A stretch of DNA of 64,000 nt from an uncultured Verrucomicrobiota bacterium (lineage in GTDB: Bacteria; Verrucomicrobiota; Verrucomicrobiia; Verrucomicrobiales; Verrucomicrobiaceae), in contig CAINGK010000128.1 of the NCBI GenBank assembly GCA_903848465.1, positions 6,270 to 70,269 on the forward strand, given 5' to 3'. The notes under the pieces were generated by a model. It was not told where the DNA came from. It searched no databases and saw nothing but the letters and a program-made list of their open reading frames with translations. Made by a program: the position numbers and the translations under genes. Shown piece after piece: positions 5,997 through 31,476 of the stretch (positions within the stretch are counted from its first letter, which is position 1; each line of letters opens with the position of its first letter).

Positions 5997-5997
5997 G

Positions 5998-11036: not shown

Positions 11037-11063
11037 TCGTCATTCTGAATTCATCATTCATTC
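11034..11063. repeat. heptamer-periodic CATTCGTCATTC-type short repeat spanning a gene junction
   Basis: cattcgtcattctgaattcatcattcattc. It matches the reverse complement of 22558-22591 at 24 of the 26 aligned positions, including an identical 14-mer CAGAATGACGAATG. It covers the M14 start codon and the sulfatase stop codon. Confidence 0.6.
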
Positions 11064-12479: not shown

Positions 12480-12679
12480 GTGTGGAGCATGATCGAGACG
12501 ACTGCCCTGAGGCAAGCACGGATTTTTCCATCCTGACCTAGCACCTGCCATGACAGCTACGTTTGCGGCCAGATCATTTTAACCGATATGATAGTGCCGA
12601 AATTCGCATGCTAGAGGCTGGCGCACATCGCTCCTTGTAATCCTCTGCATAACTTCATTTACAAGCGACGGCCCAGGAG

Positions 12680-16979: not shown

Positions 16980-17075
16980 GGCGGTGGGAGCAGGTTGGGG
17001 ACTCTGCTTATACAACCACCGGCGTCAGCATGATACAGACATGATTTTGGCCGAATCGGACATGAGGCCGCTGTG

Positions 17076-17933: not shown

Positions 17934-17949
17934 GGTTGGGGAGTGGTTG

Positions 17950-18705
17950 CTATTCTTTCTTGGCAGGCAGATGCTTTGCGAGATCGCGCATGGCGATGAC
18001 CTTGCAACCTTCGTCCTTGAGGTGCTGCATGTAGGTCTCAAATTTGGCCGGGTCAGTGTTCACATGCGGGTGCTTGATGTCTGGCACACCGTGGAAAGTC
18101 ATCACGGCGATCTTGCCATCCTTTGCCTGAGCCACGGCAGCCTTGAACTGCTCCAGAGTGCTGGCCGGCTTGCCATCAAAGGCCTGCGGCAGAGTGAGTG
18201 GATCATCCATGGCCGGGTCGTAGGCTCTGGCACCGCCAGCGCGGGCAAACTGGTAGCCGCGCTCGCGCAGGAGCTTCACTGCGGCCTCGCTGGTCTGATA
18301 GCCGGGATAGCAAAAGCTCACTGGCTTGGGGATGCCGTATTTCGCGCACTGCTGCTCGATGAACTCCACATCCTCCGCGAGTTGCTCGGGCTTTTGTTTG
18401 GCCACGCCTGCGTGTTTGCGGGTATGATTGCCGATTTCTAAGCCGTCTGCGTCGAGGGCTTTGATCTGCTCCCAGGTCATGTAGTGCTCCTTGTCCACGA
18501 GGAACTCGAAGCCTTCGGTGATGAAGAAGGTCGCGCCGAAGCCATGCTTTTTCAGCAGCGGTGCCACGAAGGTGGCGTGGCTGGCCACGGAGTCATCAAA
18601 GGTGAGGACCACGAGACGCTCTGGGGCTGGTTCGACGGCGAGCGAGCGCCATGCCAAGGTGACGGTGAGAAGGAGTGCAACGATGGCAATGTGGACAGGC
18701 TTCAT
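17950..18705 (-). CDS. polysaccharide deacetylase (CE4 / NodB family)
   Basis: Signal peptide present. LTFDDS (motif 1). GNHTRKH (motif 2-like). Typical spacing. Confidence 0.75.
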
Positions 18706-18711
18706 GGGGGA

Positions 18712-19482
18712 TTATTTCACTTTCCAAATCTTCACGTCGTCGATCCACACGGTGTTTGGCACCAGGAAGCTGAACCAGCGCTTCATTGGATGGGCATAAC
18801 CTTCCGAGTGATGACTGGCCACCACTTTGCTGTCGAGGCTGAGGCGCATTTCGTCACCTTCGTTGACGAGAACCAGATCATGCCATTCAGTGTCGGCTTT
18901 CCAGGGGACGACGACCTTCTTGGAGTTGATCAGGGCTTCGAAATCAGCGGGCGGCTTTTCTTTGCGGGTCAGGTAATCTTCCCGCCGCTTGCGATTCTCC
19001 AGATTCATGATGCCGGTTTTGTGATCGATCAGCGTGATGCTGCTCTGGCTGAGAATCCCATAGCAGAGATGCCCGGCATGGACGCCTTTCGTCTCACGGT
19101 CCACAAAGCCAAGCTGCAGCGATTCACCCTGCGAGAGGCCAGGGAAGCGGAAGCGTACTATGACTCCGCCATCGGTGAATCCCGCCTCGTGATGAATGTG
19201 CGCAGCATGACCTGCCTCTTTAGTGGCGCTGGCAATTTTCAAGATGCCGTCATCGAGGTTTGCCATCTTGATCTGCGGCACACGACCCGCCGTGGCGCTG
19301 TTCCAGCCATTGCCGATGGCTTTGGCGAGATTGCCATCTTCCTCACGCTCGAAGGCGTCATGGAAGATCATCTGCCCTTTGTCGCGCAGCCACGCGGCAT
19401 CATCTCGCAGCGGGGGAGTATCAGTGGCTTGAACTACAGCCAGCGGAGCCAGCAGCAGTGTGGTGAAAAGGAATGACTTCAT
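18712..19482 (-). CDS. hypothetical secreted protein, possibly a concanavalin/LamG-like beta-sandwich
   Basis: Signal peptide MKSFLFTTLLLAPLAVVQA. Beta-rich sequence ending WIDDVKIWKVK. No catalytic motif recognised. Confidence 0.45.
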   Translation of the reverse strand: MKSFLFTTLLLAPLAVVQATDTPPLRDDAAWLRDKGQMIFHDAFEREEDGNLAKAIGNGWNSATAGRVPQIKMANLDDGILKIASATKEAGHAAHIHHEAGFTDGGVIVRFRFPGLSQGESLQLGFVDRETKGVHAGHLCYGILSQSSITLIDHKTGIMNLENRKRREDYLTRKEKPPADFEALINSKKVVVPWKADTEWHDLVLVNEGDEMRLSLDSKVVASHHSEGYAHPMKRWFSFLVPNTVWIDDVKIWKVK

Positions 19483-19484
19483 GC

Positions 19485-20363
19485 CTACTTGGGAGCACTC
19501 ACACCTTTGGCCTTGTCGGCGGCTTCCTTGGCTTTCTTTTCGGCGGCAGCTTTGGCTTTGGCCTCAGCGGCCTTCTGTGCCGCCGCAATGCCAGCGGCTT
19601 CGAGCGGCGGCCAGGAGGCTTTGGCTTTGTCGAGTTCGGCCGCATTGAGACCGAGAGCCTGCAGCACGCCAATGGCCATGAGCTTGTTGCCTTCGACATT
19701 CATGTGGACACCATCGCTGGTGAGCACTTTCTCGTTCGGCTTGTTCTCGGCCTTGATGCGCTCCTGAAACATCGCGTTCAGATCTGCGAGCGGGATTTTC
19801 TTTTCTTTGGCGAGTTCACGGAGGAAGGCGTTGTAGGGAGCGATCAGGCCGTTCTCTTTGCTGTCGAGTTTTTCATGAATCACGGTGGCAGTCAGCATCA
19901 CTGGCTTCACGCCTGCGGCCTGCGCCTGGTCAATGATCGCGGTGATGTTCTTTTTGTAGGTGCCACGGGTGGCCACTTTGTCATCGTAAGTGCCGCTCTT
20001 CGCCATGGCATCATCGAGGGGCACGCCACGCGGGCCGTGCCAGACATCGTTCACACCGCAGCTCAGCGTCATCCATTGCGGCTTTTTGCTCAGCACGTCT
20101 TTGTCCAGGCGTGCGAGCATCTGATCGGATTTATGCCCACCGATACCTGCGGGCACAGGCTCAGCTTTGATGCCATTGGCTTCCAAACCGGCGATCACGA
20201 GCCGCACATAACCTGCGGGATTGCCCCAGCCGCCTGCGGTGATGGAATCACCAAGGAAGGCGATCTTCTCACCGCTTTTCACGGCGATTTCTGCTTTACT
20301 CAGATTGGGGACAAGAAGAGCTGCGACAAGGACGGGAATAAGACGGGTATGGAAGCGGCGCAT
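19485..20363 (-). CDS. SGNH/GDSL hydrolase with Ala/Lys-rich C-terminal tail
   Basis: Block I FLGDSITAGG. Block III-like CGVNDV. Signal peptide starts at the internal ATG (MRRFHTRLIPVLVAALLVP). Tail AAQKAAEAKAKAAAEKKAKEAADKAKG. Confidence 0.75.
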   Translation of the reverse strand: MRRFHTRLIPVLVAALLVPNLSKAEIAVKSGEKIAFLGDSITAGGWGNPAGYVRLVIAGLEANGIKAEPVPAGIGGHKSDQMLARLDKDVLSKKPQWMTLSCGVNDVWHGPRGVPLDDAMAKSGTYDDKVATRGTYKKNITAIIDQAQAAGVKPVMLTATVIHEKLDSKENGLIAPYNAFLRELAKEKKIPLADLNAMFQERIKAENKPNEKVLTSDGVHMNVEGNKLMAIGVLQALGLNAAELDKAKASWPPLEAAGIAAAQKAAEAKAKAAAEKKAKEAADKAKGVSAPK

Positions 20364-20457
20364 GGTGGTTGAGTGTGGGATTGGATACAGCATGCAAACG
20401 CAGCGCGTTCAGCATCCTTTCTCTCTGCTTCACTCAACGTTCAGAATGCGACGCCCA

Positions 20458-22605
20458 TCAGGGCTTGAAGACAGCGATTTCCTTCGCTGTGGCGACATCC
20501 CATTCACGCAGGTTGCCGTCTTGATCACCGCCGAGAACAAGATCGCCAGATTTGGTGGTGGCGAGAGATTGTAGGAAGGCAGTGGCACCGGCGAGTTGTT
20601 TCACTTCTCCGCCGTCGCTGGTGATGAGACGAAGTTTGTTGTCTCCAGCGCTGGTGGCGATCTGATCGGCGGCACCAAGGTAGTGGATGCCAGTGACTTC
20701 TTTGTCCCAGCCATCGACGCTCTTGCGGCGGTCGCCGGTGGTCCAGTCCCAAACTTTGACGACGTTGTCGGCACCGCTGCTGGCCAGGAGGCGGCCATCG
20801 GCACGCCATGAAACACCGAGCACGTGGTGCGTGTGACCTTCAAAGACCTTCACGACTTTGCCGGTGCTCAGGTCGGTGATGCGCACCGCTTTGTCTGCAC
20901 CGCCGGAAGCGAGGAGCTTGCCATCCGGCGAGAAGTCGAGCGCGAAGATGCTGTCGAGGTGGCGTTCAGCATAGTCCTTGGTCAGTTTGCCCGTCGCCAT
21001 GTCCCACAGGGTGATGTCGCCACTACGGGAAGGCTCGCCGCTGCCAATGGCGAGTGTTTTACCGTCGGGGCTGAAGGCGATGCTGTTGGCGCGGTCGGTG
21101 ATCTGGGATTTGCCATCGCCGGTGCCAAAGGTGCGCTCGAGGGTCCACGTCGCACTCGAGCTGCCTGGAGCGATGGGTTTTCCATTCGTGGTGCTCCAGG
21201 CGAGGGGCGGGCCGCTGTCCTGTTCGGCGATGAGTTCGAGGCCGTTCGCAGAGAACTGAAGTGACTTGGCTTTCTTGAGACCCGTGGTGAGCGTTTTGGC
21301 AATCAGATCACGATCTGCGTTCGCTTTCTCCACTTCCTTCTTCACCACTTCGAGGCGGGCTTTGGCATCAACGACCGTTTGCTTGGCCTTCTTTTCATTC
21401 TCGGTGACGAGCTTGATTTCATTCGCTGTGTCGGTGATGGCGGCTTCGGCACGGGTGAAAGCTTCCTGCGCGAGCTTAAGATCTGCTGTTGCTTTGGTGG
21501 CCTTTTCCTGCGCTTCGGTGTTCTTCTTTTTCAAAGCTTCATCCGGCTTGTCTTGTGGCACCTTGGCGAGTTGATCGGCGACTTCCTTCGCTGCTTTCTC
21601 GACTGCGACTTTGGCATCTTCCTTGGGCTTGATGTCCTTCTTCTTGTCTTCGAGCGCTTTTTTGGCCACGTCGGCGAGTTCATTGGCTTTCTTCAAACGA
21701 TTGGTCTGCTCGGTGGCGTCAGTCTCGGCTTTTTTGATGGCTTCATTCTGATAGGTCACTTCCAATGCAGCACGCACCGCGGTGAGGCTGTGCTGCGCTA
21801 GGGCCTGCTCGGCGGCGAGGTCAGATTTGATGTGGGCGATGAGTTTGCCACCGGCGGTTTCGGTCAGCTTGATGGAGTTGTCCGCTTCTTGCGTTGCGGT
21901 GAATTTGGCGGAAGGGGCGAAGGCGGCAGCTGCGGGGGCGCTGCGTTTCCACAGCTTCACCTCACGAAAGCTGCCGGTGGCAAGGCGTGTGCCGTCCGGG
22001 CTGAATGCGAGAGATTGAACGAGATCGCGATGGGCGACACCGGGCTGCTTGTAGAGGCCGGTTTTGAGCAGGGTTTCATCCGTGAGCTTGGTAACGAGAC
22101 TCTGCGTGGGCAGATGGTAGATACTGATCTGGTTTGCACGAGCCGCGGCAGCAAAGTCGCCCTGGGGGGCGACGGCGATGGCATAAATGGACTGCAAGCC
22201 AGCAGGCAGCGGCTCCCATGCGATGATCTGGACTTTTTTGGGCGAAGCTTTCGCGCCTTGATCGATCCACGCTTTGAAGAGTGAGAGCTGTTCGGCAGAA
22301 AGATTCACCGCGCCGACCTTGTTGCCCTTCGGCGGCATCTCGGAGTCCCAGGTGTGCGCTGCGGCCTGATACATGACGCTGTCCGCGCCTTTGCCGGGAA
22401 TGATGCCTTTGTCGCTCTCGCCGCCCTTGGCCATGAGCTCCGGCGTCTCCATGTTGAGGCCGCCCTTGGTGGTGGTCTTGTTATGGCAGGCGATGCAGTT
22501 GTCCTTCAGGAACGGACGAACTTGTTTGTCGTAGTCGATGGGCGCGGGAGCCGCCGCAATGACGAATGACGAATGCAGAATGACGAATGGGATGATGAAT
22601 CTCAT
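20458..22605 (-). CDS. PSCyt1 (planctomycete cytochrome c) domain + WD40 repeat protein with ~180-aa coiled-coil insert
   Basis: Heme motif CIACH at 22483-22497. WD-type repeats such as LAFSPDGTRLATGS, IAFSPDGKTLAIGS, LDFSPDGKLLASGG and VSWRADGRLLASSG. Lys/Glu/Ala-rich segment at ~21286-21822. Confidence 0.8.
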   Translation of the reverse strand: MRFIIPFVILHSSFVIAAAPAPIDYDKQVRPFLKDNCIACHNKTTTKGGLNMETPELMAKGGESDKGIIPGKGADSVMYQAAAHTWDSEMPPKGNKVGAVNLSAEQLSLFKAWIDQGAKASPKKVQIIAWEPLPAGLQSIYAIAVAPQGDFAAAARANQISIYHLPTQSLVTKLTDETLLKTGLYKQPGVAHRDLVQSLAFSPDGTRLATGSFREVKLWKRSAPAAAAFAPSAKFTATQEADNSIKLTETAGGKLIAHIKSDLAAEQALAQHSLTAVRAALEVTYQNEAIKKAETDATEQTNRLKKANELADVAKKALEDKKKDIKPKEDAKVAVEKAAKEVADQLAKVPQDKPDEALKKKNTEAQEKATKATADLKLAQEAFTRAEAAITDTANEIKLVTENEKKAKQTVVDAKARLEVVKKEVEKANADRDLIAKTLTTGLKKAKSLQFSANGLELIAEQDSGPPLAWSTTNGKPIAPGSSSATWTLERTFGTGDGKSQITDRANSIAFSPDGKTLAIGSGEPSRSGDITLWDMATGKLTKDYAERHLDSIFALDFSPDGKLLASGGADKAVRITDLSTGKVVKVFEGHTHHVLGVSWRADGRLLASSGADNVVKVWDWTTGDRRKSVDGWDKEVTGIHYLGAADQIATSAGDNKLRLITSDGGEVKQLAGATAFLQSLATTKSGDLVLGGDQDGNLREWDVATAKEIAVFKP
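22558..22600. repeat. heptanucleotide-periodic tract (AATGACG-type units) encoding the signal peptide of the WD40 gene
   Basis: aatgacg aatgacg aatgcag aatgacg aatggga tgatgaa. It shares the 14-mer CAGAATGACGAATG with the repeat at 11034-11063 (opposite orientation). Confidence 0.6.
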
Positions 22606-24647
22606 TTTTTGACGGGCTCTTTCACGCGGATGCGGATGGGATTGGAATAGACAATGAAGGTGGCGTCTTTGGCAGCGGCCTTCGCGGCGAGATCTTTGAC
22701 GAGCTTGTCTGCGGCGGCTTTGGTGGTGTCCGAGGTCTTGAGCGCGGCGGTGGCGACTTTGACGAGTTCGGCTTTTTGCGGCGTGGCGTCGGCATTGGCG
22801 GTGTCGAGCTGCTTTTTGGCAACTGTTTGAGCGTCGGCGGCTTTTTTGGCATCGGCTTCGGCAACGTTGAGTTCTTCGACCCCACGGCGGAATTTCATCT
22901 TCGCGGGGCCTTGGAGGATGAAGCCGTAATCTCCGGGAGAGAGTTTGAGTGCTTTCACATCGAGGGTGAATTTGCCTGCGGCGGCTTTGGCGGGGATGTC
23001 GGCTTCAGGAGCTTTGGCGGCGTCGATGAGGCCGAGGGCTTTGAGCTTGAGAGACTCGGTGAAGTCGGCATGGCGGGTGACTTTGAGGGCGATTTCGAGC
23101 TTTGCGTCTGGGGCGACTTCGAGGATGTCCGTTTTCTCGGTTTGCACAGACGCAGGAGCGGGCTGGGTGCTGACACCGAGCGCGGGTGCGCCGGTGGTGC
23201 GATAGAGGAGATTGTCCTTGGTAGCGTCAGCCACGCCAAAACTCGTGAAGCGGCTCTGTGGAATCCCGCTGAGGATGCTGGCTCCGGCAGGGGCATCGGC
23301 GCTCGCTTGAAACGCGATATAGCCCAGCGACTGGCCTTTACCGATGAAGCCGCCGAGGCAGGTGACGCCGGCGGGAAGCTTGTCGGCTTTGAGTTCAATG
23401 GCTTCGCTCAGGGCGTTGCGATTGGGGGCGATGATTTCGAGCGCGGCGATGCCTCCGCGCGGGACATTGGCGCTACCGAGTTCGCCACCTTTGGTCTTGG
23501 CACCGGGCAGGATAGCATTAAGGGCGATGAGAGGCGCAGGCTTCGATTCTTCTTTGAGGATGCGCAGTTCAAACGGAAGTGTGCTGTTGAAGTTGTCGCT
23601 GAGGGTGAGGCGGAACGTGCCGTCGGCCTTGGCCTCATAGGCATAGGAGGGATCGCGACTGAGAAGATTGATGCTGGGTGCAGGGGTAATGGCAGGTGCA
23701 TCAGCGACCTCCGCCTGCGGCTTGAGCGTCTCTTTGCCTGCCGCGTCCTTGGTAAGGCTCTCAATCACCAGATTGGGATCGGTGGCATGACCCAACTGGT
23801 GGGAATGCACTTCGATGATGAATTTTTCACCCGTCTTGTAGGCGAGATCGAAGGTGTGAGTGAGACCGTGCGGCAGAAAGGCGTCCTTGATGGTCTGACC
23901 AATCTGGATAGGCCGCACCGCTCCCGGCTTAGCAGACACTGGTGCCGGTGGTGCGGAGGACGAGAGAGTGATGCGGTAGCCGTAGTCATCTCCCGCGCGA
24001 TACATGAGTTCATTGAAACGCAGCCGGTAGCTGGCGTCGGCTGGAGCCGTGAAGGTGAGCACACCCCCGCGCATGTGGGCAAGTTCACGCCCAGTAGGAG
24101 CGCTGAGCACACCGAGCAGCTCGGTGCGGGTGTCAAAGCGGCGGCCATCGAAGGTGGCGGTGAGGTGCTGTCCCTGTTTCAGGTCAATGGTGAACCAATG
24201 CGGTGAACTGGATTTGAAGCAGCCCTGAATGACGGCATTAAGCCCGACTTTGAGGGCTTTGTCGGGTTTGGTGTTTGCCCCAGTGGATTCGATAGCGTCG
24301 AGTGTGCTGACTTCAAAAACCCGAGGATTGGAGACGCCGTAGCGGCCGACGAAACGGCAATCGTAGAGGGCAGGCTTCAGGTCTGCGGGCAGCGTGACGC
24401 TGAAGAGGTTTGGCTTGTTGCTTTTGACTGGGATGGCGCGCTCGTTGAGTAGAACCGATTGCGGGCCTTCGAGATCCGTACCGCGCAGGGTGAGTTCGAT
24501 GGTGGCACCGGGCTTGCCCCCGAGAGGAGAAATAGAAGTCAGGGTTGGAGACGGAAAGGTGGCCTGTGAGAACGCTGGGGCAGAGAACGCCAGCAGGACT
24601 GAAAATTGTAAACTGAGAACTGAGAACTGAAAATTGGAGCGAGGCAT
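22602..24647 (-). CDS. secreted IPT/TIG-like + two PPC (pre-peptidase C-terminal)-like domains, Ala/Lys-rich C-terminal segment
   Basis: Signal peptide present. ISPLGGKPGATIELTLRGTDL is IPT-like. PHWFTIDLKQGQHLTATFDG...YRLRF and HTFDLAYKTGEKFIIEVHS...FRLTL are PPC-like. ATGA overlap with the downstream gene at 22602-22605. Confidence 0.55.
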   Translation of the reverse strand: MPRSNFQFSVLSLQFSVLLAFSAPAFSQATFPSPTLTSISPLGGKPGATIELTLRGTDLEGPQSVLLNERAIPVKSNKPNLFSVTLPADLKPALYDCRFVGRYGVSNPRVFEVSTLDAIESTGANTKPDKALKVGLNAVIQGCFKSSSPHWFTIDLKQGQHLTATFDGRRFDTRTELLGVLSAPTGRELAHMRGGVLTFTAPADASYRLRFNELMYRAGDDYGYRITLSSSAPPAPVSAKPGAVRPIQIGQTIKDAFLPHGLTHTFDLAYKTGEKFIIEVHSHQLGHATDPNLVIESLTKDAAGKETLKPQAEVADAPAITPAPSINLLSRDPSYAYEAKADGTFRLTLSDNFNSTLPFELRILKEESKPAPLIALNAILPGAKTKGGELGSANVPRGGIAALEIIAPNRNALSEAIELKADKLPAGVTCLGGFIGKGQSLGYIAFQASADAPAGASILSGIPQSRFTSFGVADATKDNLLYRTTGAPALGVSTQPAPASVQTEKTDILEVAPDAKLEIALKVTRHADFTESLKLKALGLIDAAKAPEADIPAKAAAGKFTLDVKALKLSPGDYGFILQGPAKMKFRRGVEELNVAEADAKKAADAQTVAKKQLDTANADATPQKAELVKVATAALKTSDTTKAAADKLVKDLAAKAAAKDATFIVYSNPIRIRVKEPVKK
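24611..24631. repeat. three tandem heptamers AACTGAG AACTGAG AACTGAA inside a signal-peptide coding region
   Basis: Read directly from the sequence. On the coding (minus) strand it yields the peptide repeat QFSVLSLQFSVL. Confidence 0.7.
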
Positions 24648-24658
24648 GGCACGAGCGC

Positions 24659-26857
24659 TTAGTGATTGAAGAGAAACTCTTTCGTGTTCAGCAGCGCCCA
24701 GAGGATGTCCTCATAAGCCTCTTTTTTGCCTTTGAAGGCTTCATCGCCCGTCTTGCCTGCGGTCTTCTTGTCGAGGTGGGTGTGGGCGAATTTGACTTCG
24801 TTGGCGTTGGGGTCGCGGCTGAGGGCGATGTGGTAAAGGTCGGCGATTTTATCGTCGTCAGGACGTGTGTCCTTGGTGAGCGTGTCGGCACGACCGTTGC
24901 CACGGGAAAGCTGGGTCTGGATTTCGGCGGCGTTCAGCAGATGCAGACTCTGTGCGAGGCTGGCCTCCTGGGTGCGCTCGCACTCGCAGGCGCTGGAGGA
25001 GTCAGGGCGACCGAAGACGCTGAGGAAGTAGGTGCTCTGGTTGTAGCTGTTGTCCGGCAGGGCGACGGCACGGGTGCCGGGAGCCTGACCGGCGAAGTTG
25101 GTTTCGACATCGAGCAGCGTGTTGACGGAGTCGTAGAGGACTTCGGCATTGAGGCGCTTTGGATAGTAGCGGCTGAAGTTCTGGCGGTCCTTCGCGTTGT
25201 AGGTGTTTGGAACGGCGCTGAGCTGGTAGGTGGTGGAATTGGTGATGGTGCGGATGAGTTTTTTCAGATCGTAGCCGTTCTTCACGAAGTCGGCGGCGAG
25301 GGCGCTGAGCAACTCGGGATTCACCGGAGGATTGGTCTCGCGCATGTCGTCCTCGGGTTCAACGAGGCCGCGATTGAAGAAGTGCTTCCAGTAGCGATTC
25401 ACCAGCGTGTGGGCAAAGAACGCGTTGTCCTTCTGGCTCATCCATTCGGCGAGCGACTGACGTGGATCCTGCTCGGGCTTCAGCTTCAAGGCCTGACCTC
25501 CGAGGCTGGTGGGAGTCACGGCCGCCTTGGTGCGAATGTTGGTGGTCTGGGCCACGCCGCGTTTGTTGAAGATCATTTCTTCACCGGCAAAGGTCGAGGG
25601 CTTGCGGCTGACGTTGCTGAAGAAGGCGGCGAAGCCGTAGTAGTCCTGCTGGCTCCACTTCTCAAAGGGATGATGATGGCACTGCGCACACTGCATGCGC
25701 GTGCCAAGGAAGAGCTGGGCGACGTCCTCCATCTGCTGCTTCATCTCTTTGACCTGACGATACCAGGCGACGGGGGGATTTTGATCGAGATCACCGGAGG
25801 CGGAGACGACTTCGCGCACGAACTGATCGTAAGGTTTGTTGTCCGCGATGCTGTCGCGAATCCACGAGTAGAATAGATAACTGCCGCGTGCGAAGTTGGG
25901 CTGCGTGCGCTGGTTACGCAGGAGGGCGCTCCACTTGTTGGCGAAGTATTCGGCGTAGTCCGGGCTGTCGAGCAAGCGGTCGATGAGGGCGCTGCGTTTT
26001 GCCGCGTCTGGGGAGGCCATGAAGTCCTTCATTTCTGCTGCGGTGGGCAGGCGGCCGGTGATGTCGAGGGTGACGCGGCGGATGAAGGTGCCGTCGTCAG
26101 CGATGTCGGACGGCGGCATGCCGATGGTCTTCAATTTTGCGAAGACGAGATCGTCCACAAAACCACGCGAGGCAGGCAGTTTGTCCACTGGAGCACCGAG
26201 CGGCACAGTGGCGCGGAAGGTGGACACCTTGCCCTGATAACGGACCATCACGGCGACATCGCCGGGGAGATCAAAGAGCTGCACGCGGCCGGTTTCGCTG
26301 GTTTCGGCCATGGCTTTTTCGTTGGCTTCATACAGTGCGCGCTTGGTGACATCGCGAGTGCTGCCGTCGGTGTAGTGGGCAGTGACCTTGAGCTGCTGCG
26401 CGGCTTTGAGCGGCATGGTGAGCTTTGCGGGCTCGACACTGATGCTTGCCATCTTGGGATCGCTGTCCTTGCCATAGGGCATGCCCTCGCGAATCCAGCG
26501 AGCCAGGTCAGCGTAGTCCTCGGAGTTTGGATCGAGCTTCTTGCCGCCGCCATGCGGGAGCTGGGCGGTGCCTTTGGTGAGCAGCAGGCTCTGCTCCGCT
26601 GATGCCGGAAAGACGCGGCGTCCACGGGCTTCCTTCACAATATGCTCATAGTCTTCCTGCGGCTCAAAACCGAGCAGTGAAAGCTTGAAACCGTTTTGTC
26701 CGCCCGATTTGCCATGGCAACCGCCGGAGTTGCAACTGCCCTTCGTGAGGATAGGCACGATGTCGTTGGCAAAGTTCAAAGGACGCAATGCCTCCGCCGC
26801 GAAACAAGGTGCGGCGGCATACAAGGCAGCGATGAGTGTGGCGCGTTTCAGATTCAT
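24659..26857 (-). CDS. DUF1549 (PSCyt2) + Big_2 + DUF1553 (PSD1) protein
   Basis: CNSGGCHG..GQNGFKLSLLGF and CAQCHHHPFEKWSQQDYYGFAAFF (DUF1549). Ig-like VTAHYTDGSTRDVT. C-terminal CECERTQEASLAQSLHLLN (DUF1553). Confidence 0.85.
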   Translation of the reverse strand: MNLKRATLIAALYAAAPCFAAEALRPLNFANDIVPILTKGSCNSGGCHGKSGGQNGFKLSLLGFEPQEDYEHIVKEARGRRVFPASAEQSLLLTKGTAQLPHGGGKKLDPNSEDYADLARWIREGMPYGKDSDPKMASISVEPAKLTMPLKAAQQLKVTAHYTDGSTRDVTKRALYEANEKAMAETSETGRVQLFDLPGDVAVMVRYQGKVSTFRATVPLGAPVDKLPASRGFVDDLVFAKLKTIGMPPSDIADDGTFIRRVTLDITGRLPTAAEMKDFMASPDAAKRSALIDRLLDSPDYAEYFANKWSALLRNQRTQPNFARGSYLFYSWIRDSIADNKPYDQFVREVVSASGDLDQNPPVAWYRQVKEMKQQMEDVAQLFLGTRMQCAQCHHHPFEKWSQQDYYGFAAFFSNVSRKPSTFAGEEMIFNKRGVAQTTNIRTKAAVTPTSLGGQALKLKPEQDPRQSLAEWMSQKDNAFFAHTLVNRYWKHFFNRGLVEPEDDMRETNPPVNPELLSALAADFVKNGYDLKKLIRTITNSTTYQLSAVPNTYNAKDRQNFSRYYPKRLNAEVLYDSVNTLLDVETNFAGQAPGTRAVALPDNSYNQSTYFLSVFGRPDSSSACECERTQEASLAQSLHLLNAAEIQTQLSRGNGRADTLTKDTRPDDDKIADLYHIALSRDPNANEVKFAHTHLDKKTAGKTGDEAFKGKKEAYEDILWALLNTKEFLFNH

Positions 26858-26936
26858 GATGATTAAAACCTACGGGGTGAGAGCTGAAATCTTGTCTTTC
26901 AGATCAAAAGGAGGATGAGTTTCCGGTTTAGACCTC

Positions 26937-28277
26937 TCACACCAGCTCTGACATCGGCAGGTGCCCATCGACGAGATACTGGGGTCTGCCGGTGAGATCG
27001 GTGAGGGTGGCTTTCGTCACGTCGATGCCCATTTGCTTGTAAAGCGTGGCGAAGACTTCGCCAAAGGCGACGGGGCGTTCGGTGGGTTCACCGGCCAGTT
27101 TGTCGGTGGCACCGATGACCTGACCGTGACGCATGCCGCCGCAGGCGAGGAGTGCGGAAGCGACACGCGGCCAATGGTCGCGGCCACCTTTGGCATTGAT
27201 CATCGGCGTGCGGCCAAATTCACCCCACACGACGACGGAGACATCCTTGTCCAGGCCACGCTCATGCAGATCGGTAATGAGCGCGGTGAGTCCGCTGTCG
27301 AGCAGCGGCAGGTCTTCGCGAAGCTGCTTGAAGTTGTCGGAATGGTAGTCCCAGCGGCTGAAGGCGAGCGTGACGACACGCGCGCCAGCTTCCACCAGAC
27401 GACGTGCGGCGAGAAAGTGCTCAGGCAGACGCGGACCGCCGTCGTCGCGATTGCGGTTTTCGCCCTTGCCGTAGCGCTCGACGACACGCGGATCTTCGCG
27501 GCTCAAATCGAGGGCGTGAATCAATTTCGGACTCGTGAGCACGTTGAGCGCCTGCTCATTGAACACATCCACCCCACCCATGAGACCGGTGGCATCGAGA
27601 TCGCGCCGCAGAACGTCAAAACTGGAAAGCAGCGACTTGCGATCCCGCAAACGATCAAGCGTGATGCCATGAAGTGACATGTCATCTGTGCCGCTGCCAC
27701 GGTTTGCTTGGAACGGCGCATGAGCGACACCGAGAAAGCCCGGCTCACCTGTGCGCGCCCACTCCATGTGACCCATCTTGGGCGCGAGACCGACGAACGG
27801 TGGCATGGCAGGATTGGTGCTGCCCTGCAAACGCGAGACGATGGATCCGAGCGAGGGCCAGCCGCCGGGAGGCTGCTGCTTGGAGTTGCGACCCGTGAGG
27901 CACTGAAAGGCATCGTGGCGCGTATCGCAATCCGCCATGGAGCGGATGAGGGTACACTTGTCCATCATTTTGGCGAGACGCGGAAGATGCTCGCAGATCT
28001 GGATGCCGGGGACGTTGGTGGAGATCGGTTTGAACTCGCCGCGAATCTCGCTCGGTGCGTCCGGCTTCATGTCGAACATGTCCTGATGCGACGGCCCACC
28101 GGGCAAGAAGATCATGATCACCGCCTTGTGCGACTTGCCAGTCTTTTGCACAGACTCGGCGCGCAGCACATCATTCAACGACAGGCCGCCCATGGCGAGC
28201 CCGCCGATCTTGAGGAAATTTCGGCGTGACACACCATCGCAATAGCCGCCGCTGGGATGGGAGTAGAGGTTGAGCAT
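26937..28277 (-). CDS. DUF1501 protein (sulfatase/alkaline-phosphatase-superfamily-like, TAT signal)
   Basis: SRRNFLKIGGLAMGG twin-arginine region. FGRTP...GRDHW C-terminal motifs. Start placed at the ATG at 28277 (the ORF-track start at 28295 is TTG). Confidence 0.85.
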   Translation of the reverse strand: MLNLYSHPSGGYCDGVSRRNFLKIGGLAMGGLSLNDVLRAESVQKTGKSHKAVIMIFLPGGPSHQDMFDMKPDAPSEIRGEFKPISTNVPGIQICEHLPRLAKMMDKCTLIRSMADCDTRHDAFQCLTGRNSKQQPPGGWPSLGSIVSRLQGSTNPAMPPFVGLAPKMGHMEWARTGEPGFLGVAHAPFQANRGSGTDDMSLHGITLDRLRDRKSLLSSFDVLRRDLDATGLMGGVDVFNEQALNVLTSPKLIHALDLSREDPRVVERYGKGENRNRDDGGPRLPEHFLAARRLVEAGARVVTLAFSRWDYHSDNFKQLREDLPLLDSGLTALITDLHERGLDKDVSVVVWGEFGRTPMINAKGGRDHWPRVASALLACGGMRHGQVIGATDKLAGEPTERPVAFGEVFATLYKQMGIDVTKATLTDLTGRPQYLVDGHLPMSELV

Positions 28278-28332
28278 GGTGGTTGGTTGAGGCAACTAAA
28301 CCTACGGGGCCATGCGCGTCCCTCTTGCCAAA

Positions 28333-29778
28333 TCAAATCAACCCACCAATCGGCGACCCCATGTACAGCGTATGCGGGCGACCAGTGAAGTCCTTCCAGA
28401 GCGTTTCGCGTGGCAGGCCGAGGGCTTCATAAATCGTCGCGGCGAGGTTTTCAGGCGTTTGCGCATCGCTGGCAGGATAGCCACCGATTTTGTCAGTGGA
28501 GCCAATGACGCGCCCCCCTTTAATGCCACCGCCAGCGAGCAGGATGCTTTGTGCATGGCCCCAGTGGTCACGACCTGGCAGAGCGGTGGCAGAGATGCTC
28601 TTGATTTTGGGCGTGCGGCCAAACTCGCCGCCCATGACGATGAGGGTCTCATCCAACTGACCGCTGGCGTCGAGGTCTTCGAGCAGGGCGCTCACGGCCT
28701 GATCCATCGGCGGGAGGAGGTAATTTTTGAGATTGCCCCATGCGGCCTGATGCGTGTCCCAGGTCTCGTTGTTGCCAAGGTTCACCTGCACCATGCGCAC
28801 ACCGCTTTGCACGAGCCTGCGCGCCATGAGCAGCGACCAGCCGAAGCTGTTGCGGCCGTAGCGGTCGAGCATCTTGGGATCGACCTTTTCCAAACTGAAG
28901 GCGTCATGCACCTTGCGGTTGCTCAGAAGGCCGATGGCCGCCTGTCGGGTGGAATCAAAGGCTTCATCGCCGGCCAGTGCGGTGAGATCGTTGGTTTGCT
29001 GCTCCAATGAATTGCGCAGCGAAACGCGGTCCATCACGCGGTCCATGGTGAGCCCCTGCGGCAGCGAGAGATGCGGAGCCTGGAAGAGCAGCGTGGGATC
29101 GGTTTCAAAGCCGCGCTCGTGATGGAACAGGTATTTCGGATAGGCGCCGTAGTGCTTCGGATGGTAGGGCGACATCTCCAAAAACCATGGATCATGCTGC
29201 GCGCCGAGAGTGCCTGCAAACTGCCCGGCGAGGGTGCGACCTTCGCGATGCACGAGTTTGTCCGGCAAAACGATGGCGGGAGGCAGGTTGTCTTTGCGCT
29301 TGGGCAGGAGAGCGGTAGCAAGCGCGGCCATGCTGGGATGATCGGATTTTTTCGGCTTTGATGGATCAAACCCCAGCGGCGCGTCACTGCGGCCCGTGAG
29401 CATGATGTGATGGCCCAGGTAGTGATCCGCGCTGCCATGCGTGAGCGAACGTACCAGTGACCATTTTTCCGAAATGCGTGCGAGATTGGGCAGGTGCTCG
29501 CAAATGTGCAGGCCGGGGGTGCGGGTGCGGATGGGCTTGAACTCGCCACGGATTTCCATGGGGGCATCCGGCTTCATGTCGAAGCTCTCGTGCTGCGCGA
29601 GGCCGCCGGAGAGGAAGATGTAGATCACCGATTTTGCGCGCGCCGGTTGCGTGGCCGCCGTCATGGCCTGTAGGGCACTGAGGTGATTCATGCCGAGTCC
29701 CAGCAAGCCGACTGCGCCAGCCTGAATCACTTCACGGCGGGAAACGGGATGCGCTGGATGCGGCAATGACATACGCAT
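28333..29778 (-). CDS. DUF1501 protein (divergent paralogue, TAT signal)
   Basis: SRREVIQAGAVGLLGLG. GGEFGRTPK...GRDHW. Confidence 0.85.
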   Translation of the reverse strand: MRMSLPHPAHPVSRREVIQAGAVGLLGLGMNHLSALQAMTAATQPARAKSVIYIFLSGGLAQHESFDMKPDAPMEIRGEFKPIRTRTPGLHICEHLPNLARISEKWSLVRSLTHGSADHYLGHHIMLTGRSDAPLGFDPSKPKKSDHPSMAALATALLPKRKDNLPPAIVLPDKLVHREGRTLAGQFAGTLGAQHDPWFLEMSPYHPKHYGAYPKYLFHHERGFETDPTLLFQAPHLSLPQGLTMDRVMDRVSLRNSLEQQTNDLTALAGDEAFDSTRQAAIGLLSNRKVHDAFSLEKVDPKMLDRYGRNSFGWSLLMARRLVQSGVRMVQVNLGNNETWDTHQAAWGNLKNYLLPPMDQAVSALLEDLDASGQLDETLIVMGGEFGRTPKIKSISATALPGRDHWGHAQSILLAGGGIKGGRVIGSTDKIGGYPASDAQTPENLAATIYEALGLPRETLWKDFTGRPHTLYMGSPIGGLI

Positions 29779-29817
29779 TGAAGTACGCCGCCCAGATACA
29801 AAGCCTTTCTGGAAGGC

Positions 29818-30000
29818 CTACTTCCGGTTCCAGGCACCTAGCTTGACCTTGTAGTCAGCGGCGGCTGAAGCGGAGGTAGATTTGAGTCGCAAAATTTTAG
29901 TCACCACAATCGCTCCATCCTCAATCACCACGCGCAGATCGGCTTCATCCCCTTCTTTGAAGGCCAACCCCTCAGGAATGGTGGTTTTGATTGGATACAT
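29818..30000 (-). CDS. 60-aa AbrB/MazE/SpoVT-like small protein (tentative)
   Basis: ATG at 29998-30000. IPEGLAFKEGDEADLRVVIEDGAIVVTKI resembles the swapped-hairpin IPkelr..lgl.eGD.v.i...dg.i.i pattern. Sits between two DUF1501 genes. Confidence 0.4.
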   Translation of the reverse strand: MYPIKTTIPEGLAFKEGDEADLRVVIEDGAIVVTKILRLKSTSASAAADYKVKLGAWNRK

Positions 30001-30048
30001 AGAGCAAATGTAATGCCGGAAGAAGGCACAGGCAAGCCACCTTCAAAC

Positions 30049-31410
30049 TCAAATCAGCTCCGGCATTGGCTGCCAGCCATCGACAAGGTACTGTGGACGT
30101 CCGGTCAAATCATTGAGCGTGGTCTTCACGGTGTCGATGCCCATGTGCTTGTAGAGCGTGGCGAAGACTTCGCCGAAATGCACGGGACGTTCGGTGGCTT
30201 CGCCGCCGAGTCGGTCCGTGGCACCGATGACCTGACCTGTGCGCAGGCCACCGCCCGCGAGCAAAGCACCGCCGACGCGTGGCCAGTGGTCACGACCACC
30301 GTCTTTGTTCACCATCGGAGTGCGGCCAAACTCACCCCAGGCGACGACGGCGACGTCTTTGTCGAGGCCACGTTCGTGCAGATCTTCAACGAGGGCGCTC
30401 ATGCCTTGATCGAAGAGCGGCAGGTGGCGCAGGAGTTGTGGGTAATTGTTGTCGTGGAAGTCCCAGCGGCCAAAATTCAGCGTCACCACGCGGGCACCGG
30501 CTTCGACCAGACGGCGGGCGAGCAGGAAGTGTTCGAGATTGAGTGGGGCACCGTCGCCGTAGTTTTTGGGATCACCCTTGCCGTAGCGTTCACGGGTTTT
30601 GACGCTCTCATGGTTCAAATCGAGCGCGGTGAGGAGCTTGCTGGAGGTCAGCACATTCAGCGCCTGTTGATTGAAGGCGTCCATGCTGCCGACGAGGCCG
30701 CTGGCATCAAGTTCGCGGCGGAATTTGTCAAAGCCGGTAAGGAGGGAGCGGCGGTCTTCCAGGCGGTCGAGCGTGATGCCATTGAGCTGGAGATCTTCCA
30801 TGCCTGCGCCGTTCGGACGGAAGGCGGCATGCGTGTTGCCGCAGTAGCCGGGGTGTCCTGGCGATCCATAGGGCGGATGACCGGCCTTCGGGGCGAGGCC
30901 GATGAATGAGGGAAGCGCCGGATCAGCCTGACCTTTGAGGCGTGAGACGACGGAGCCGAAGGATGGCGGATCGGAAAGGCGGCCCACCGGGGCACCGCCA
31001 CCATTGGGTGGAGGTGGCTTGCCGGTGTAGCAGATGAAACTGTCGTGCGCGCCGTTCGGAGAGCCGTACATGCTGCGAATCGGCACCAGCTTGTCCATGA
31101 TCTTGGCGAGACGGGGAGCGTGCTCGGAGATGTGGATGCCGGGGACGGCGGTCTTGATGGGTTTGTAGGGGCCGCGGATCTCCAGCGGTGCGTCCATCTT
31201 CAAATCATACATGTCCTGATGCGGCGGCGCGCCACACATGTAGATCATGATCACGGATTTGAAGCTGCGCCCCGTGCGTGCCTCCGCCTCGGCTTTCAGC
31301 AACTCCGGCAAGGACAGCCCGCCCATGGCGAGACCGCCGATGCGCAGGAAGTCGCGACGCGAGACGCCGTCGCAGAACTTGCCGTGGGATTTACCAGAAA
31401 GGGTGAGCAT
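30049..31410 (-). CDS. DUF1501 protein (close paralogue of 26937-28277, TAT signal)
   Basis: SRRDFLRIGGLAMGG. Collinear similarity to the 452-aa paralogue along the full length. GEFGRTP...GRDHW. Confidence 0.85.
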   Translation of the reverse strand: MLTLSGKSHGKFCDGVSRRDFLRIGGLAMGGLSLPELLKAEAEARTGRSFKSVIMIYMCGAPPHQDMYDLKMDAPLEIRGPYKPIKTAVPGIHISEHAPRLAKIMDKLVPIRSMYGSPNGAHDSFICYTGKPPPPNGGGAPVGRLSDPPSFGSVVSRLKGQADPALPSFIGLAPKAGHPPYGSPGHPGYCGNTHAAFRPNGAGMEDLQLNGITLDRLEDRRSLLTGFDKFRRELDASGLVGSMDAFNQQALNVLTSSKLLTALDLNHESVKTRERYGKGDPKNYGDGAPLNLEHFLLARRLVEAGARVVTLNFGRWDFHDNNYPQLLRHLPLFDQGMSALVEDLHERGLDKDVAVVAWGEFGRTPMVNKDGGRDHWPRVGGALLAGGGLRTGQVIGATDRLGGEATERPVHFGEVFATLYKHMGIDTVKTTLNDLTGRPQYLVDGWQPMPELI

Positions 31411-31476
31411 GAATGGGGTCCAAAATAAGCACCCAATGTGCCGGAACTATCATCAAACCTGCGTTATGTGCCGACC

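Follow-up and report, generated by a model that had tools for sequence, protein, structure and literature searches.

An association of DUF1501 with PSCyt genes across PVC genomes was reported by Kamneva et al. (2012, Genome Biol Evol 4:1375, PMC3542564), who described a four-protein core comprising a DUF1501 protein, a PPC protein, a PSCyt1/Big_2/PSCyt2/PSD1 protein and a PSCyt1/WD40 protein. This 'most complex four-gene cluster' of the DUF1501/PSCyt loci is found in Verrucomicrobium spinosum and other PVC bacteria, and an association of the proteins with intracellular membranes was proposed at the time (PMC3542564). The locus analysed here lies in a window of 64,000 nucleotides (the whole stretch of DNA examined), whose source is a lake-water Prosthecobacter-like verrucomicrobium. 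It is a Prosthecobacter copy of the known DUF1501–cytochrome gene module, in the form that this PVC 'DUF1501/PSCyt' module takes in Verrucomicrobiaceae. The published cluster and our locus have the same four protein types, including a DUF1501 protein with a Tat signal and a signal-peptide protein with weak PPC domains, and both are conserved in Verrucomicrobia and Planctomycetes, but the present locus carries three DUF1501 paralogues and a 60-aa gene upstream of a triad, PS2, P6 and WD. A sequence-only reading had stressed that the locus is larger than the usual pair; since the four-protein core was already in the 2012 paper (PMC3542564), the kind of module is known and its size is not a novelty. 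Our comparison adds a distinction between a three-gene operon that is universal and DUF1501 genes with separate putative promoters, together with a shared promoter-like motif.

DUF1501 genes are also paired with DUF1800 genes in Proteobacteria and other phyla, for example beside bacterial chitin synthases (PMC5122149). In both settings a Tat-signal DUF1501 protein is encoded beside a large, mostly helical partner; however, the partner in our locus is a PSCyt2/PSD1 protein with haem motifs, in which no DUF1800 match was found in Pfam, even at E<=10. PS2 weakly resembles a phycobilisome linker, a resemblance also reported for DUF1800, and a relationship between the two partners on this basis is only a lead.

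The DUF1501 proteins can also be compared with the S1 sulfatases and the alkaline-phosphatase superfamily (arylsulfatases, phosphonate monoester hydrolase, LtaS, EptA/MCR-1), with which DUF1501 shares a Pfam clan. The C-terminal segment of DUF1501 aligns with the GDHG metal site of sulfatases (for D3 against the sulfatases of the window, hhalign probability 84%, E 8e-6), but D1-D3 lack the formylglycine motif C/S-x-P/A-x-R in a motif scan, are exported by Tat and have no PDB relative detectable by sequence search. All top Foldseek matches of a DUF1501 model belong to the superfamily (LtaS, sulfatases, phosphonate monoester hydrolase, MCR-1, iPGM), although this model is of low confidence (pLDDT 52.6) and the nucleophile is not identifiable from it. 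A functional analogy can also be drawn with the Sox thiosulfate-oxidising system (SoxAX, SoxB), which combines periplasmic c-type cytochromes with a Tat-exported hydrolase. Sec-exported haem proteins and a Tat-exported metallohydrolase are encoded together for the periplasm in each case; however, nothing in our locus is related in sequence to a Sox protein, and a carrier protein is lacking.

Organisation of the locus and its products

All seven genes are real; they are listed below with their upstream elements.

31428..31442, minus strand: D1 upstream element GGCACATTGGGTGCT, conserved in upstream alignments
30049..31410, minus strand: D1, DUF1501 protein, 453 aa, Pfam DUF1501 E 2e-79, Tat motif SRRDFLR
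29818..30000, minus strand: sm, ORF for a 60-aa protein without signal peptide, invariant C-terminal KLGxWNRK
29779..29817, minus strand: sm-D2 intergenic region, weaker two-box motif CAGAAAGG...GGCGTACTT, ending ~8 nt before the D2 ATG
28333..29778, minus strand: D2, DUF1501 protein, 481 aa, Pfam DUF1501 E 2e-86, Tat motif SRREVIQ
28300..28329, minus strand: D3 two-box promoter-like motif GGCAAGAG-N-CCCCGTAGGT, filling the D2-D3 intergenic region
26937..28277, minus strand: D3, DUF1501 protein, 446 aa from ATG 28277, Pfam E 2e-85, Tat motif SRRNFLK
26868..26896, minus strand: PS2 two-box promoter-like motif GACAAGAT-N-CCCCGTAGGT, its CGTAGGT box starting 17 nt before the ATG
24659..26857, minus strand: PS2, 732 aa, signal peptide, PSCyt1-like CNSGGCH (CX4CH), Big_2, PSCyt2 (CAQCH), PSD1
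22602..24647, minus strand: P6, 681 aa, signal peptide, Ig/IPT-like domain, two PPC-like domains, further beta-sandwiches
20458..22605, minus strand: WD, 715 aa, signal or anchor sequence, PSCyt1 (CIACH at residue 37), WD40

The ORF list reproduces the minus-strand array as first read, with the same coordinates, short gaps and ATGA overlap. The successive gaps are 48, 39, 37, 79 and 11 nt, followed by the 4-nt overlap at 22602-22605, in which the start of WD overlaps the stop codon of P6; the 11-nt PS2-P6 gap went unmentioned in the first reading. The shared direction is likewise real but not special, as the minus-strand run extends downstream to ~4488 through esterase, deacetylase and sulfatase genes. 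A terminator scan of the locus showed no terminator enrichment.

Pfam matches and a twin-arginine motif in each of the three DUF1501 genes bear out their initial description. D1 and D3 align with 65% identity, and D2 is a divergent paralogue with 38% identity to D3. D3 most likely starts at ATG 28277, because the resulting 446 aa equals the orthologue length; the alternative TTG at 28295, which gives the gene range 26937-28295, is the less likely start. Amino-acid identity among D1 orthologues has a median of 95%, D3 orthologues are 74-94% identical (74-75% in Chthoniobacter), and D1, D3 and PS2 reach 80-98% across the whole family. The small gene sm is a genuine conserved gene, with 25 homologues in related loci (63-90% identity, all 59-60 aa, frame kept) and a presence in 23 of 45 loci. 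It had been called 'AbrB-like'; the protein has no Pfam match, with no AbrB/SpoVT/MazE model matching even at E<=10, and neither NCBIfam nor a profile search of PDB chains gave a match. The label therefore reflects visual resemblance only.

Within the triad, the DUF1549/DUF1553 assignment of PS2 is confirmed by Pfam (PSCyt2 E 6e-53, PSD1 E 1.5e-46). Its N terminus resembles the PSCyt1 domain of WD (pairwise E 0.006), its Big_2 part matches PDB 9ifo/9pt5, and its PSCyt2 region reaches CCP_MauG in Pfam (E 0.014-0.019) and MbnH in NCBIfam (E 0.005), far below the cut-offs. The 'IPT/PPC' label of P6 finds no Pfam match above threshold (TIG reaches only E 0.064), but the label is reasonable: the AlphaFold model (pLDDT 77) shows beta-sandwich domains in a row, which Foldseek matches to the tandem PPC-fold domains of ColG and to complement MG arrays, and planctomycete homologues exceed the Pfam PPC threshold. 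The P6 family has 2932 representatives; P6 itself carries an A/K-rich helical hairpin at 590-656 and a C-terminal KK. WD is the PSCyt1-WD40 protein originally described, with PSCyt1 at E 3e-12 and WD40 in Pfam, and its propeller is interrupted by a ~240-aa A/K/E-rich coiled coil. The haem-attachment motifs of PS2 are kept in 62/68 and 68/68 homologues and that of WD in 49/50, planctomycetes included; all three motifs are conserved across both phyla. Export signals are present on all six large products (Tat for D1-D3, Sec-type N termini for PS2, P6 and WD); these proteins should therefore work beyond the cytoplasmic membrane.

Conservation of gene order

Synteny was counted over 70 species-level loci. 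P6 is immediately preceded by PS2 in 51 of the 58 loci with room and immediately followed by WD in 39 of 60; in 31 loci the WD start overlaps or abuts the P6 stop. The PS2-P6-WD order is also kept in three Pirellulaceae (Planctomycetota) loci, where P6 is ~30% identical. Conservation of gene order thus extends well beyond the DUF1553-DUF1501 pair, and the invariant unit is a three-gene operon PS2→P6→WD with the same order in Verrucomicrobiaceae and Pirellulaceae.

The full order D1-sm-D2-D3-PS2-P6-WD recurs in many relatives, and of the 45 loci with sufficient sequence upstream, 25 have three DUF1501 genes ahead of the triad. This upstream set, with sm, is a Verrucomicrobiaceae arrangement in which other genes are often inserted between members: opposite-strand genes of 1-3.4 kb separate D2 and D3 in most relatives, and some have other genes, such as a toxin-antitoxin pair, between D3 and PS2. 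DUF1501 genes follow WD in five loci (L056, L058, L066, L067, L071), and two precede PS2 in another (L079); such recurrent adjacency at varied positions argues for a functional link. Many genomes, however, retain PS2-P6(-WD) with no neighbouring DUF1501, and none was found within 9-10 kb of the triad in the planctomycete loci or in 15 of 45 verrucomicrobial loci, so that the triad may not strictly need DUF1501 proteins as partners. Downstream of WD, gene order is kept in close Prosthecobacter relatives and lost once P6 identity falls below ~70%, and planctomycete triads have unrelated neighbour genes.

Promoter-like elements and transcription

A two-box motif, GnCAAG-N16/17-CGTAGGTT, lies upstream of D3 and PS2 and, in weaker form, before D2, where GGAAAG-N-GCGTAttt is conserved among upstream regions. 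The window has two copies of its exact 12-mer (0.04 expected). The two boxes hardly change among 29 unique orthologous upstream regions of D3 and 39 of PS2, in contrast to the spacer, which is constant in length but not in sequence; in 31 of the 39 PS2 regions the box lies 17 nt from the ATG. A pattern scan of ~1.3 Mb of related DNA gave 113 matches, of which 108 lie directly upstream of PS2, D3 or P6, so that the motif is almost exclusive to these genes. We regard it as a putative ECF-sigma-like promoter. Its -35-like box reads AAG; ECF promoters typically have AAC. No sigma-factor domain was found among the window ORFs scanned, which outside the locus were those of 200 aa or more. Upstream of D1, GGCACATTGGGTGCT fits sigma-54 -24/-12 spacing (GG-N10-GC), with changes among close relatives confined to the spacer, and may tentatively be read as a sigma-54 promoter. 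The terminator scan also marked these 15 nt as a hairpin.

Lake metatranscriptome contigs from relatives of ~90% nucleotide identity cover D1, D3, PS2, P6 and WD and span the PS2/P6 and P6/WD junctions. One contig spans the D3/PS2 junction, so that there is either some read-through transcription as well or DNA contamination in that library.

Proposed mechanism and alternative readings

Given the export signals, conserved gene order, P6/WD overlap and cross-phylum haem motifs, a periplasmic scaffold or electron carrier working with hydrolase-like proteins is a fair reading. The periplasmic complex first suggested for the locus survives in this form, but not as a single seven-gene unit. We propose as the most likely reading, at somewhat less than even confidence, a co-regulated periplasmic set of a haem-bearing scaffold and Tat-exported hydrolases under an ECF-sigma-like promoter. 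PS2, P6 and WD would assemble into the scaffold, which would carry up to three covalent haems (CX4CH and CXXCH in PS2, CXXCH in WD) and offer Big_2, Ig/PPC sandwiches and the WD40 propeller as binding modules; its two A/K-rich helical hairpins could pair. The DUF1501 proteins would be folded and supplied with a cofactor or metal while still in the cytoplasm, prior to export by Tat, and would function as ester hydrolases or transferases of the alkaline-phosphatase superfamily that dispense with a formylglycine nucleophile. The scaffold would hold or present the substrate of these enzymes, probably an anionic ester of sulfate or phosphate on a polymer. Coordination would come from the common promoter of D3, PS2 and, more weakly, D2, not from a single transcript. 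One point against part of this proposal is the 80-98% identity of D1, D3 and PS2 across the family (D3 74-75% in Chthoniobacter), a level that fits a housekeeping role in the envelope better than the breakdown of one particular substrate.

The locus is best described as several co-regulated units around a three-gene core. That it is instead one operon, read as a single message for a stoichiometric seven-component periplasmic complex, seems quite improbable. The shared strand with gaps of at most 79 nt, the lack of terminator enrichment, the recurring seven-gene order and the D3/PS2 contig would all suit such an operon, but an uninterrupted unit is contradicted by the promoter-like motifs filling the gaps before D3 and PS2 (weakly D2), the genes inserted at D2/D3 and D3/PS2, the patchy presence of sm and WD, and the planctomycete triads that lack a nearby DUF1501. 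The opposite extreme, in which the DUF1501 genes and the triad are independent and adjacent only by shared family descent, could draw on the solitary triads and on the putative promoters of the DUF1501 genes; we consider it very unlikely, as D3 and PS2 have the same rare motif, the place at which DUF1501 adjoins the triad varies from lineage to lineage, and the association is PVC-wide in the published survey (PMC3542564).

Two further readings concern chemistry rather than organisation. The haems might pass electrons to or from the substrate, or from the DUF1501 proteins. The module would then carry out oxidative chemistry instead of simple hydrolysis, in the manner of the periplasmic Sox or MauG/MbnH-type systems. 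The conserved haem motifs, the weak likeness of PSCyt2 to di-haem peroxidase/MauG and MbnH models, and Tat export, typical of cofactor-loaded redox enzymes and argued too by Kamneva et al. (PMC3542564), favour this idea. We nevertheless think it unlikely: the peroxidase/MbnH matches hardly extend past the haem motif, DUF1501 aligns with the metal sites of hydrolases and shows no recognisable site for a redox cofactor, and the locus encodes no quinol- or membrane-linked partner. It is improbable, too, that the module belongs to a larger polysaccharide-degradation island acting on one acetylated, sulfated glycan with the adjacent GDSL esterase, polysaccharide deacetylase, BD-FAE esterase, DUF7133/3-keto-disaccharide-hydrolase cytochrome protein and sulfatases. 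These genes do follow at short gaps, in an order kept in close Prosthecobacter relatives, and sulfatases near PSCyt genes were reported by He et al. (2017); yet this synteny fades with P6 divergence and is foreign to the planctomycete triads. Furthermore, D1, D3 and PS2 are conserved far above usual degradative enzymes.

Gene order and a conserved three-gene core

Seven open reading frames (ORFs) run along the minus strand from 31410 down to 20458, with gaps of 48, 39, 37, 79 and 11 nt in order and then a 4-nt ATGA overlap:

30049–31410 (−), D1, DUF1501 gene
29818–30000 (−), sm, 60-aa ORF
28333–29778 (−), D2, DUF1501 gene
26937–28277 (−), D3, DUF1501 gene
24659–26857 (−), PS2, PSCyt2/PSD1 gene
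22602–24647 (−), P6, multi-β-sandwich PPC-family gene
20458–22605 (−), WD, PSCyt1–coiled-coil–WD40 gene

The start of D3 is most likely the ATG at 28277, which gives a protein of 446 aa, matching its orthologues. The source is a Prosthecobacter-like verrucomicrobium of a lake-water metagenome. The nearest homologues of the encoded proteins come from Prosthecobacter and Verrucomicrobiaceae MAGs, and the exact window sequence was found in lake-water DNA runs only. An earlier, sequence-only reading had recognised three DUF1501 genes, a PSCyt2/PSD1 gene and a PSCyt1–WD40 gene, all of which Pfam confirms. Most of what it observed stands. A multi-protein periplasmic system remains a plausible product of the locus; a single seven-gene unit, which it also proposed, is not plausible.

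The locus belongs to a kind described since 2012. A ‘most complex’ four-gene DUF1501/PSCyt cluster has been reported in Verrucomicrobium spinosum and other PVC bacteria, comprising a DUF1501 protein with a Tat signal, a signal-peptide protein with a weak PPC match, a PSCyt1/Big_2/PSCyt2/PSD1 protein and a PSCyt1/WD40 protein (Kamneva et al. 2012, PMC3542564); the names DUF1501, PSCyt2 and PSD1 date from 2004 (Studholme et al., as cited in PMC3542564). All four protein types are present here. That module is conserved across PVC phyla, and we find the PS2–P6–WD triad in Verrucomicrobiaceae and in three Pirellulaceae loci. What is new is the three-gene core common to both phyla, DUF1501 genes that are modular and have promoter-like elements of their own, a specific promoter-like motif and a conserved CX4CH/CXXCH set. 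No functional characterisation of the DUF1501/PSCyt families was found in the searchable literature from 2013 to 2026.

Gene order was surveyed in one genome per species, giving 76 loci in which the window proteins were placed by tblastn; synteny was counted over 70 distinct loci with a P6 orthologue, each denominator being the loci with room for the gene in question. Broad P6-family alignments were too divergent for a genome scan and a narrower alignment confined the survey to Verrucomicrobiaceae, so that the cross-phylum comparison consists of three planctomycete contigs. PS2 is the gene immediately upstream of P6 in 51 of 58 loci. WD follows P6 immediately in 39 of 60, and in 31 it overlaps the P6 stop or abuts it. 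Further upstream, 25 of 45 loci have three DUF1501 genes and 15 have none; sm was found in 23 of 45. Even loci whose P6 is just 45% identical (L057 and L067) show the full D1–(sm)–D2–D3–PS2–P6–WD order. Three contigs of Pirellulaceae (Planctomycetota), one of them from Anatilimnocola aggregata ETAA8, carry PS2–P6–WD in the same order with no DUF1501 gene within 9 kb, which makes the three-gene operon PS2–P6–WD the universal core. Adjacency of DUF1501 to this triad is recurrent, not obligatory. A fourth DUF1501 gene, 39% identical to D3, directly follows WD in five loci (L056, L058, L066, L067 and L071), and two DUF1501 genes precede a divergent PS2–P6 pair, with a P6 27% identical, in L079 (7198 region). 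On the minus strand of L063 lies that contig's second PS2–P6 pair, which is divergent and on the opposite strand. The arrangement of the window recurs in cultured Prosthecobacter, for example P. fluviatilis KACC 12649 (L013).

The seven-gene order is often broken at the D2–D3 and D3–PS2 junctions. In most relatives the former has 1–3.4 kb of opposite-strand genes that are absent from the window, encoding a conserved hypothetical protein of ~340 aa and, in some relatives, also a metallo-beta-lactamase-fold protein (~327 aa) and a ~450-aa protein. The first of these, which has no Pfam match, is found in several loci:

L001, 5210–6238, ~340-aa insert gene at D2/D3
L003, 5214–6242, ~340-aa insert gene at D2/D3
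L004, 4217–5233, ~340-aa insert gene at D2/D3
other loci, ~340-aa insert gene at D2/D3

The window, at 28278–28332, and L045 have only a 55-nt, promoter-bearing gap at this position, which is a hot spot of insertion and deletion. At the D3–PS2 junction some relatives carry a RelE/HTH pair or other genes. One such case, in a 5.9-Mb genome (L004, 6670–7648), is a RelE-like/HTH toxin–antitoxin pair with a 94-aa ORF, and this junction therefore tolerates foreign genes.

Sequence conservation is uneven along the locus. Median amino-acid identity to the window is 95% for D1, 92% for D2, 90% for D3 and 91% for PS2, against 76% for WD, 75% for sm and 67% for P6; D3 orthologues in Chthoniobacter are still 74–75% identical.

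Domains and haem motifs of the encoded proteins

PS2 and WD both begin with a visible signal sequence and are, as read from their sequences, exported proteins with the CXXCH haem-attachment motif of c-type cytochromes. PS2 matches PSCyt2 (E 6e-53) and PSD1 (E 1.5e-46) in Pfam, with a weak Big_2 match (E 0.003–0.014) over a region that also matches the Big_2 repeats of PDB 9ifo. Its N terminus and the PSCyt1 domain of WD are collinear (E 0.006), PS2 having a CX4CH motif (CNSGGCH) in place of CXXCH. WD matches PSCyt1 (E 3e-12), where it carries CIACH, and WD40 (E 1e-34), its propeller being interrupted by an A/K/E-rich coiled coil of ~240 residues. Among homologues, CN[SGA]G[GA]CH is kept in 62 of 68 PS2 proteins, CA[QRK]CH (CAQCH in the window) in all 68, and C[IL]ACH in 49 of 50 WD proteins; all three motifs are kept in both phyla.

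A short stretch of PS2 (residues 263–316) weakly resembles a phycobilisome linker (Pfam PF00427, E 0.005; ApcE of PDB 7ext, E 0.23). A similar resemblance has been reported for DUF1800 (2026, PMC12981691), and since it is found for both families it hints that PSCyt2 and DUF1800 have a module in common. Outside the PVC group, DUF1501 is usually paired with DUF1800. PS2 was considered as a relative of DUF1800 itself and this was rejected, Pfam giving no match.

P6 (681 aa) has no above-threshold Pfam match. An exhaustive HMMER search places it in a very large family, of which 2932 cluster representatives were matched at E≤1e-3. Its AlphaFold model (pLDDT 77) comprises a signal peptide and five or six β-sandwich domains, the last of which holds an inserted A/K-rich helical hairpin of 65 residues. 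In Foldseek the model matches the tandem PPC-fold collagen-binding domains of ColG (5iku, E 4e-9) and also arrays of complement macroglobulin domains. A planctomycete homologue exceeds the Pfam PPC threshold (31.5 vs 25.9 bits) and, given this and the ColG matches, the earlier label ‘IPT/PPC’ is a fair description.

The three DUF1501 proteins (Pfam E 2e-79 to 2e-86) carry the twin-arginine motifs SRRDFLR, SRREVIQ and SRRNFLK. D1 and D3 are 65% identical, and D2 is a divergent paralogue at 38%. S1 sulfatases are defined by the formylglycine motif C/S-x-P/A-x-R. This motif is present in two of the window's sulfatases and, in contrast, missing from D1, D2 and D3. Aligned with those sulfatases by hhalign, DUF1501 matches with a probability of 84% over the C-terminal metal-site segment only, its GEFGRTP...GRDHW segment pairing with their GDHG metal site. 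The predicted DUF1501 structure is poor (pLDDT 52.6), built on a shallow alignment of 74–94% identical homologues, and we use it for superfamily placement only and not for active-site geometry. Its top Foldseek matches, LtaS, sulfatases, phosphonate monoester hydrolase, MCR-1 and iPGM, all fall within the alkaline-phosphatase superfamily (E about 1e-3, TM about 0.35). Profile and model together partly establish DUF1501 as a probable member of the alkaline-phosphatase/sulfatase superfamily. Searches of PDB sequences with DUF1501 and with P6 returned no meaningful match.

The ORF sm (60 aa) is a genuine gene, with homologues of 59–60 aa at 63–90% identity in 25 related loci and an invariant C-terminal KLGxWNRK. 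It had been called AbrB-like, for which we find no support. Pfam gave no match for three homologues even at E≤10, NCBIfam likewise gave none, and a 15-homologue profile against PDB sequences returned only chance matches to SUMO and PKG; an AbrB/SpoVT/MazE swapped-hairpin identity was accordingly rejected.

Promoter-like elements and transcripts

The gaps between the genes are not neutral sequence. Upstream of both D3 and PS2 lies a two-box motif, G(G/A)CAAG followed after 16–17 nt by C(C)GTAGGTT. In the 64 kb there are exactly two copies of the 12-mer CCCCGTAGGTTT, against 0.04 expected, and the D3 and PS2 sites are the only intergenic two-box matches in the window. Both boxes are almost invariant among the unique upstream regions of PS2 (39) and D3 (29), and the spacer between them is of fixed length and variable sequence. 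The distance from the start of the downstream box to the ATG is 17 nt for PS2 in 31 of 39 cases, and 13–31 nt for D3. When both strands of ~1.3 Mb of related loci were scanned, 108 of 113 matches lay directly upstream of PS2, D3 or a P6 without PS2. A general promoter of the organism was considered and rejected, since neither the other intergenic regions of the window nor those of the ~1.3 Mb have the motif. A weaker version (GGAAAG...GCGTAttt) precedes D2, and in distant relatives the full motif is also found at D1. The element is absent from P6 and WD; in close relatives P6 starts 11–15 nt after PS2, and WD overlaps P6.

ECF-sigma promoters combine a −35 element of the GGAAC type with a −10 element of the CGT type, as AAC-N16/17-CGT. 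The G(G/A)CAAG and CGTAGGTT boxes have ECF-like spacing, with a −35-like box that ends in AAG, not AAC, and their layout resembles that of ECF-sigma promoters; such putative promoters would yield very short leaders. A sigma-70 reading, with TAGGTT as the −10 element, was rejected because it places the −35-like xxGACA/TGGCAA too far away, at 20 nt; the ECF-like register, with 16–17 nt to CGTA, is the better fit. No sigma-factor domain was found in the window ORFs that were scanned (those of the locus and, outside it, those of 200 aa or more). Simple sigma-70 and terminator scans of 17–33 kb gave no enrichment over shuffles and were not informative.

In the planctomycete triads (L082, about 6130–6257; L083; L084) the CGTAGGTT motif is absent, and the regulatory wiring therefore differs between the phyla. 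There, a sigma-70-like TTGCAA-N17-(C/G)ATAAT element lies about 75–90 nt upstream of PS2 and, within the triad, before PS2 only.

Two further signals were observed. The sequence GGCACATTGGGTGCT at 31428–31442 (−), 32 nt upstream of the D1 ATG, fits sigma-54 −24/−12 spacing and is kept in Prosthecobacter-like loci, where only spacer bases change; in the more distant L057 and L064 its place is taken by the ECF-like two-box motif, and the same bases of the window were also called a hairpin by a simple terminator scan. The final codons of P6 in relatives (...GTG AAG GAG GTC GCC AAA AAA TGA) hold a Shine–Dalgarno-like AAGGAGG together with the WD ATG, so that the P6 C terminus encodes both protein and the translation-start signals of WD. 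This arrangement occupies 22602–22630 in the window, in a weaker version (GAAAGAG), and the equivalent position in about 30 loci.

The window itself was found in DNA runs only, and the RNA data are assembled contigs of related lake populations. These metatranscriptome contigs, whose source populations are about 90% identical, cover D1, D3, PS2, P6 and WD, and barely cover D2. They span the PS2/P6 and P6/WD junctions, and the D3/PS2 junction once, and several stop just a few bases from the start codon of D3 or D1. As the contigs carry no strand information and may contain DNA, this support for transcription is only suggestive.

Proposed function and genomic surroundings

Beyond domain content, export signals, synteny and motif conservation, all of them observed directly, we tentatively propose the following mechanism. 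PS2, P6 and WD could form a haem-bearing periplasmic scaffold with many binding modules. Exported by Tat, the DUF1501 proteins would work as metallo-hydrolases or transferases that dispense with a formylglycine nucleophile; their substrate would be an anionic ester held by this scaffold. A dedicated sigma factor may coordinate expression of the DUF1501 genes and the triad. In its most far-reaching form, the proposal is of a PVC-specific, three-haem periplasmic or envelope machine (PS2–P6–WD), conserved from Planctomycetota to Verrucomicrobiota, wired in Verrucomicrobiaceae by a dedicated ECF-type sigma factor into a regulon with near-invariant Tat-exported DUF1501 enzymes and expressed from almost leaderless mRNAs, which performs an essential, lineage-specific envelope or nutrient reaction joining haem chemistry to an alkaline-phosphatase-fold enzyme; this we consider speculative and rather unlikely to be correct as stated. 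We know of no characterised enzyme pairing of that kind.

Of the four other explanations, each less likely than the proposed mechanism, a true seven-gene operon encoding one complex is the least compatible with the data. Conserved promoter-like motifs stand before D3 and PS2, and weakly before D2, and relatives have opposite-strand or unrelated genes at D2/D3 and D3/PS2. Alternatively, the module may be a redox machine; membrane targeting and electron transport were suggested for the 2012 cluster, to which its authors assigned no function (PMC3542564). It may instead be part of the neighbouring esterase/sulfatase island, and a carbohydrate role has been suggested for PSCyt genes from their proximity to sulfatases (He et al. 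2017, PMC5615132). That D1, D3 and PS2 are so highly conserved speaks for a role that is central, perhaps envelope-related, rather than glycan-specific. The faster-evolving P6 and WD may face a variable partner or substrate. A last alternative is that the DUF1501 genes and the triad are merely co-inherited.

DUF1501, DUF1549/PSCyt2 and DUF1553/PSD1 are among the most expanded role-less families in Planctomycetes and Verrucomicrobia. The locus makes the problem of their role more tractable. The minimal conserved unit is now defined as the PS2–P6–WD operon, with DUF1501 and PS2 as nearly invariant partners and P6 and WD as fast-evolving ones; the two-box motif could be used to find the regulator and the remaining regulon, and cultured Prosthecobacter with the locus make knock-outs, haem staining and pull-downs feasible.

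Directly downstream of the module, a block on the minus strand (12786–20393) encodes a GDSL esterase, a 256-aa unknown protein, a polysaccharide deacetylase and a BD-FAE esterase. Next in the block comes a 1409-aa protein whose domains are 3-keto-disaccharide hydrolase, DUF7133 (TIGR02604, PVC-type haem-binding), HEAT and cytochrome c. The block is syntenic with the module in close Prosthecobacter relatives only. The esterase and deacetylase ORFs share 92 nt, so the TTG start given to the esterase probably lies too far upstream. Three S1-type sulfatase genes are present in the window:

4488–6038 (−), S1-type sulfatase gene
11058–12551 (−), S1-type sulfatase gene
61136–62272 (−), S1-type sulfatase gene

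Two of these have the formylglycine motif, as CMPSR and CSASR; the third ORF is short (378 aa), lacks the motif-bearing N-terminal part and may be truncated or mis-started. Among the hydrolase genes, at 6053–8431 (−), lies a gene for a 792-aa AAA-type ATPase with a weak BrxC/BrxD-like N-terminal match (E 8e-6).
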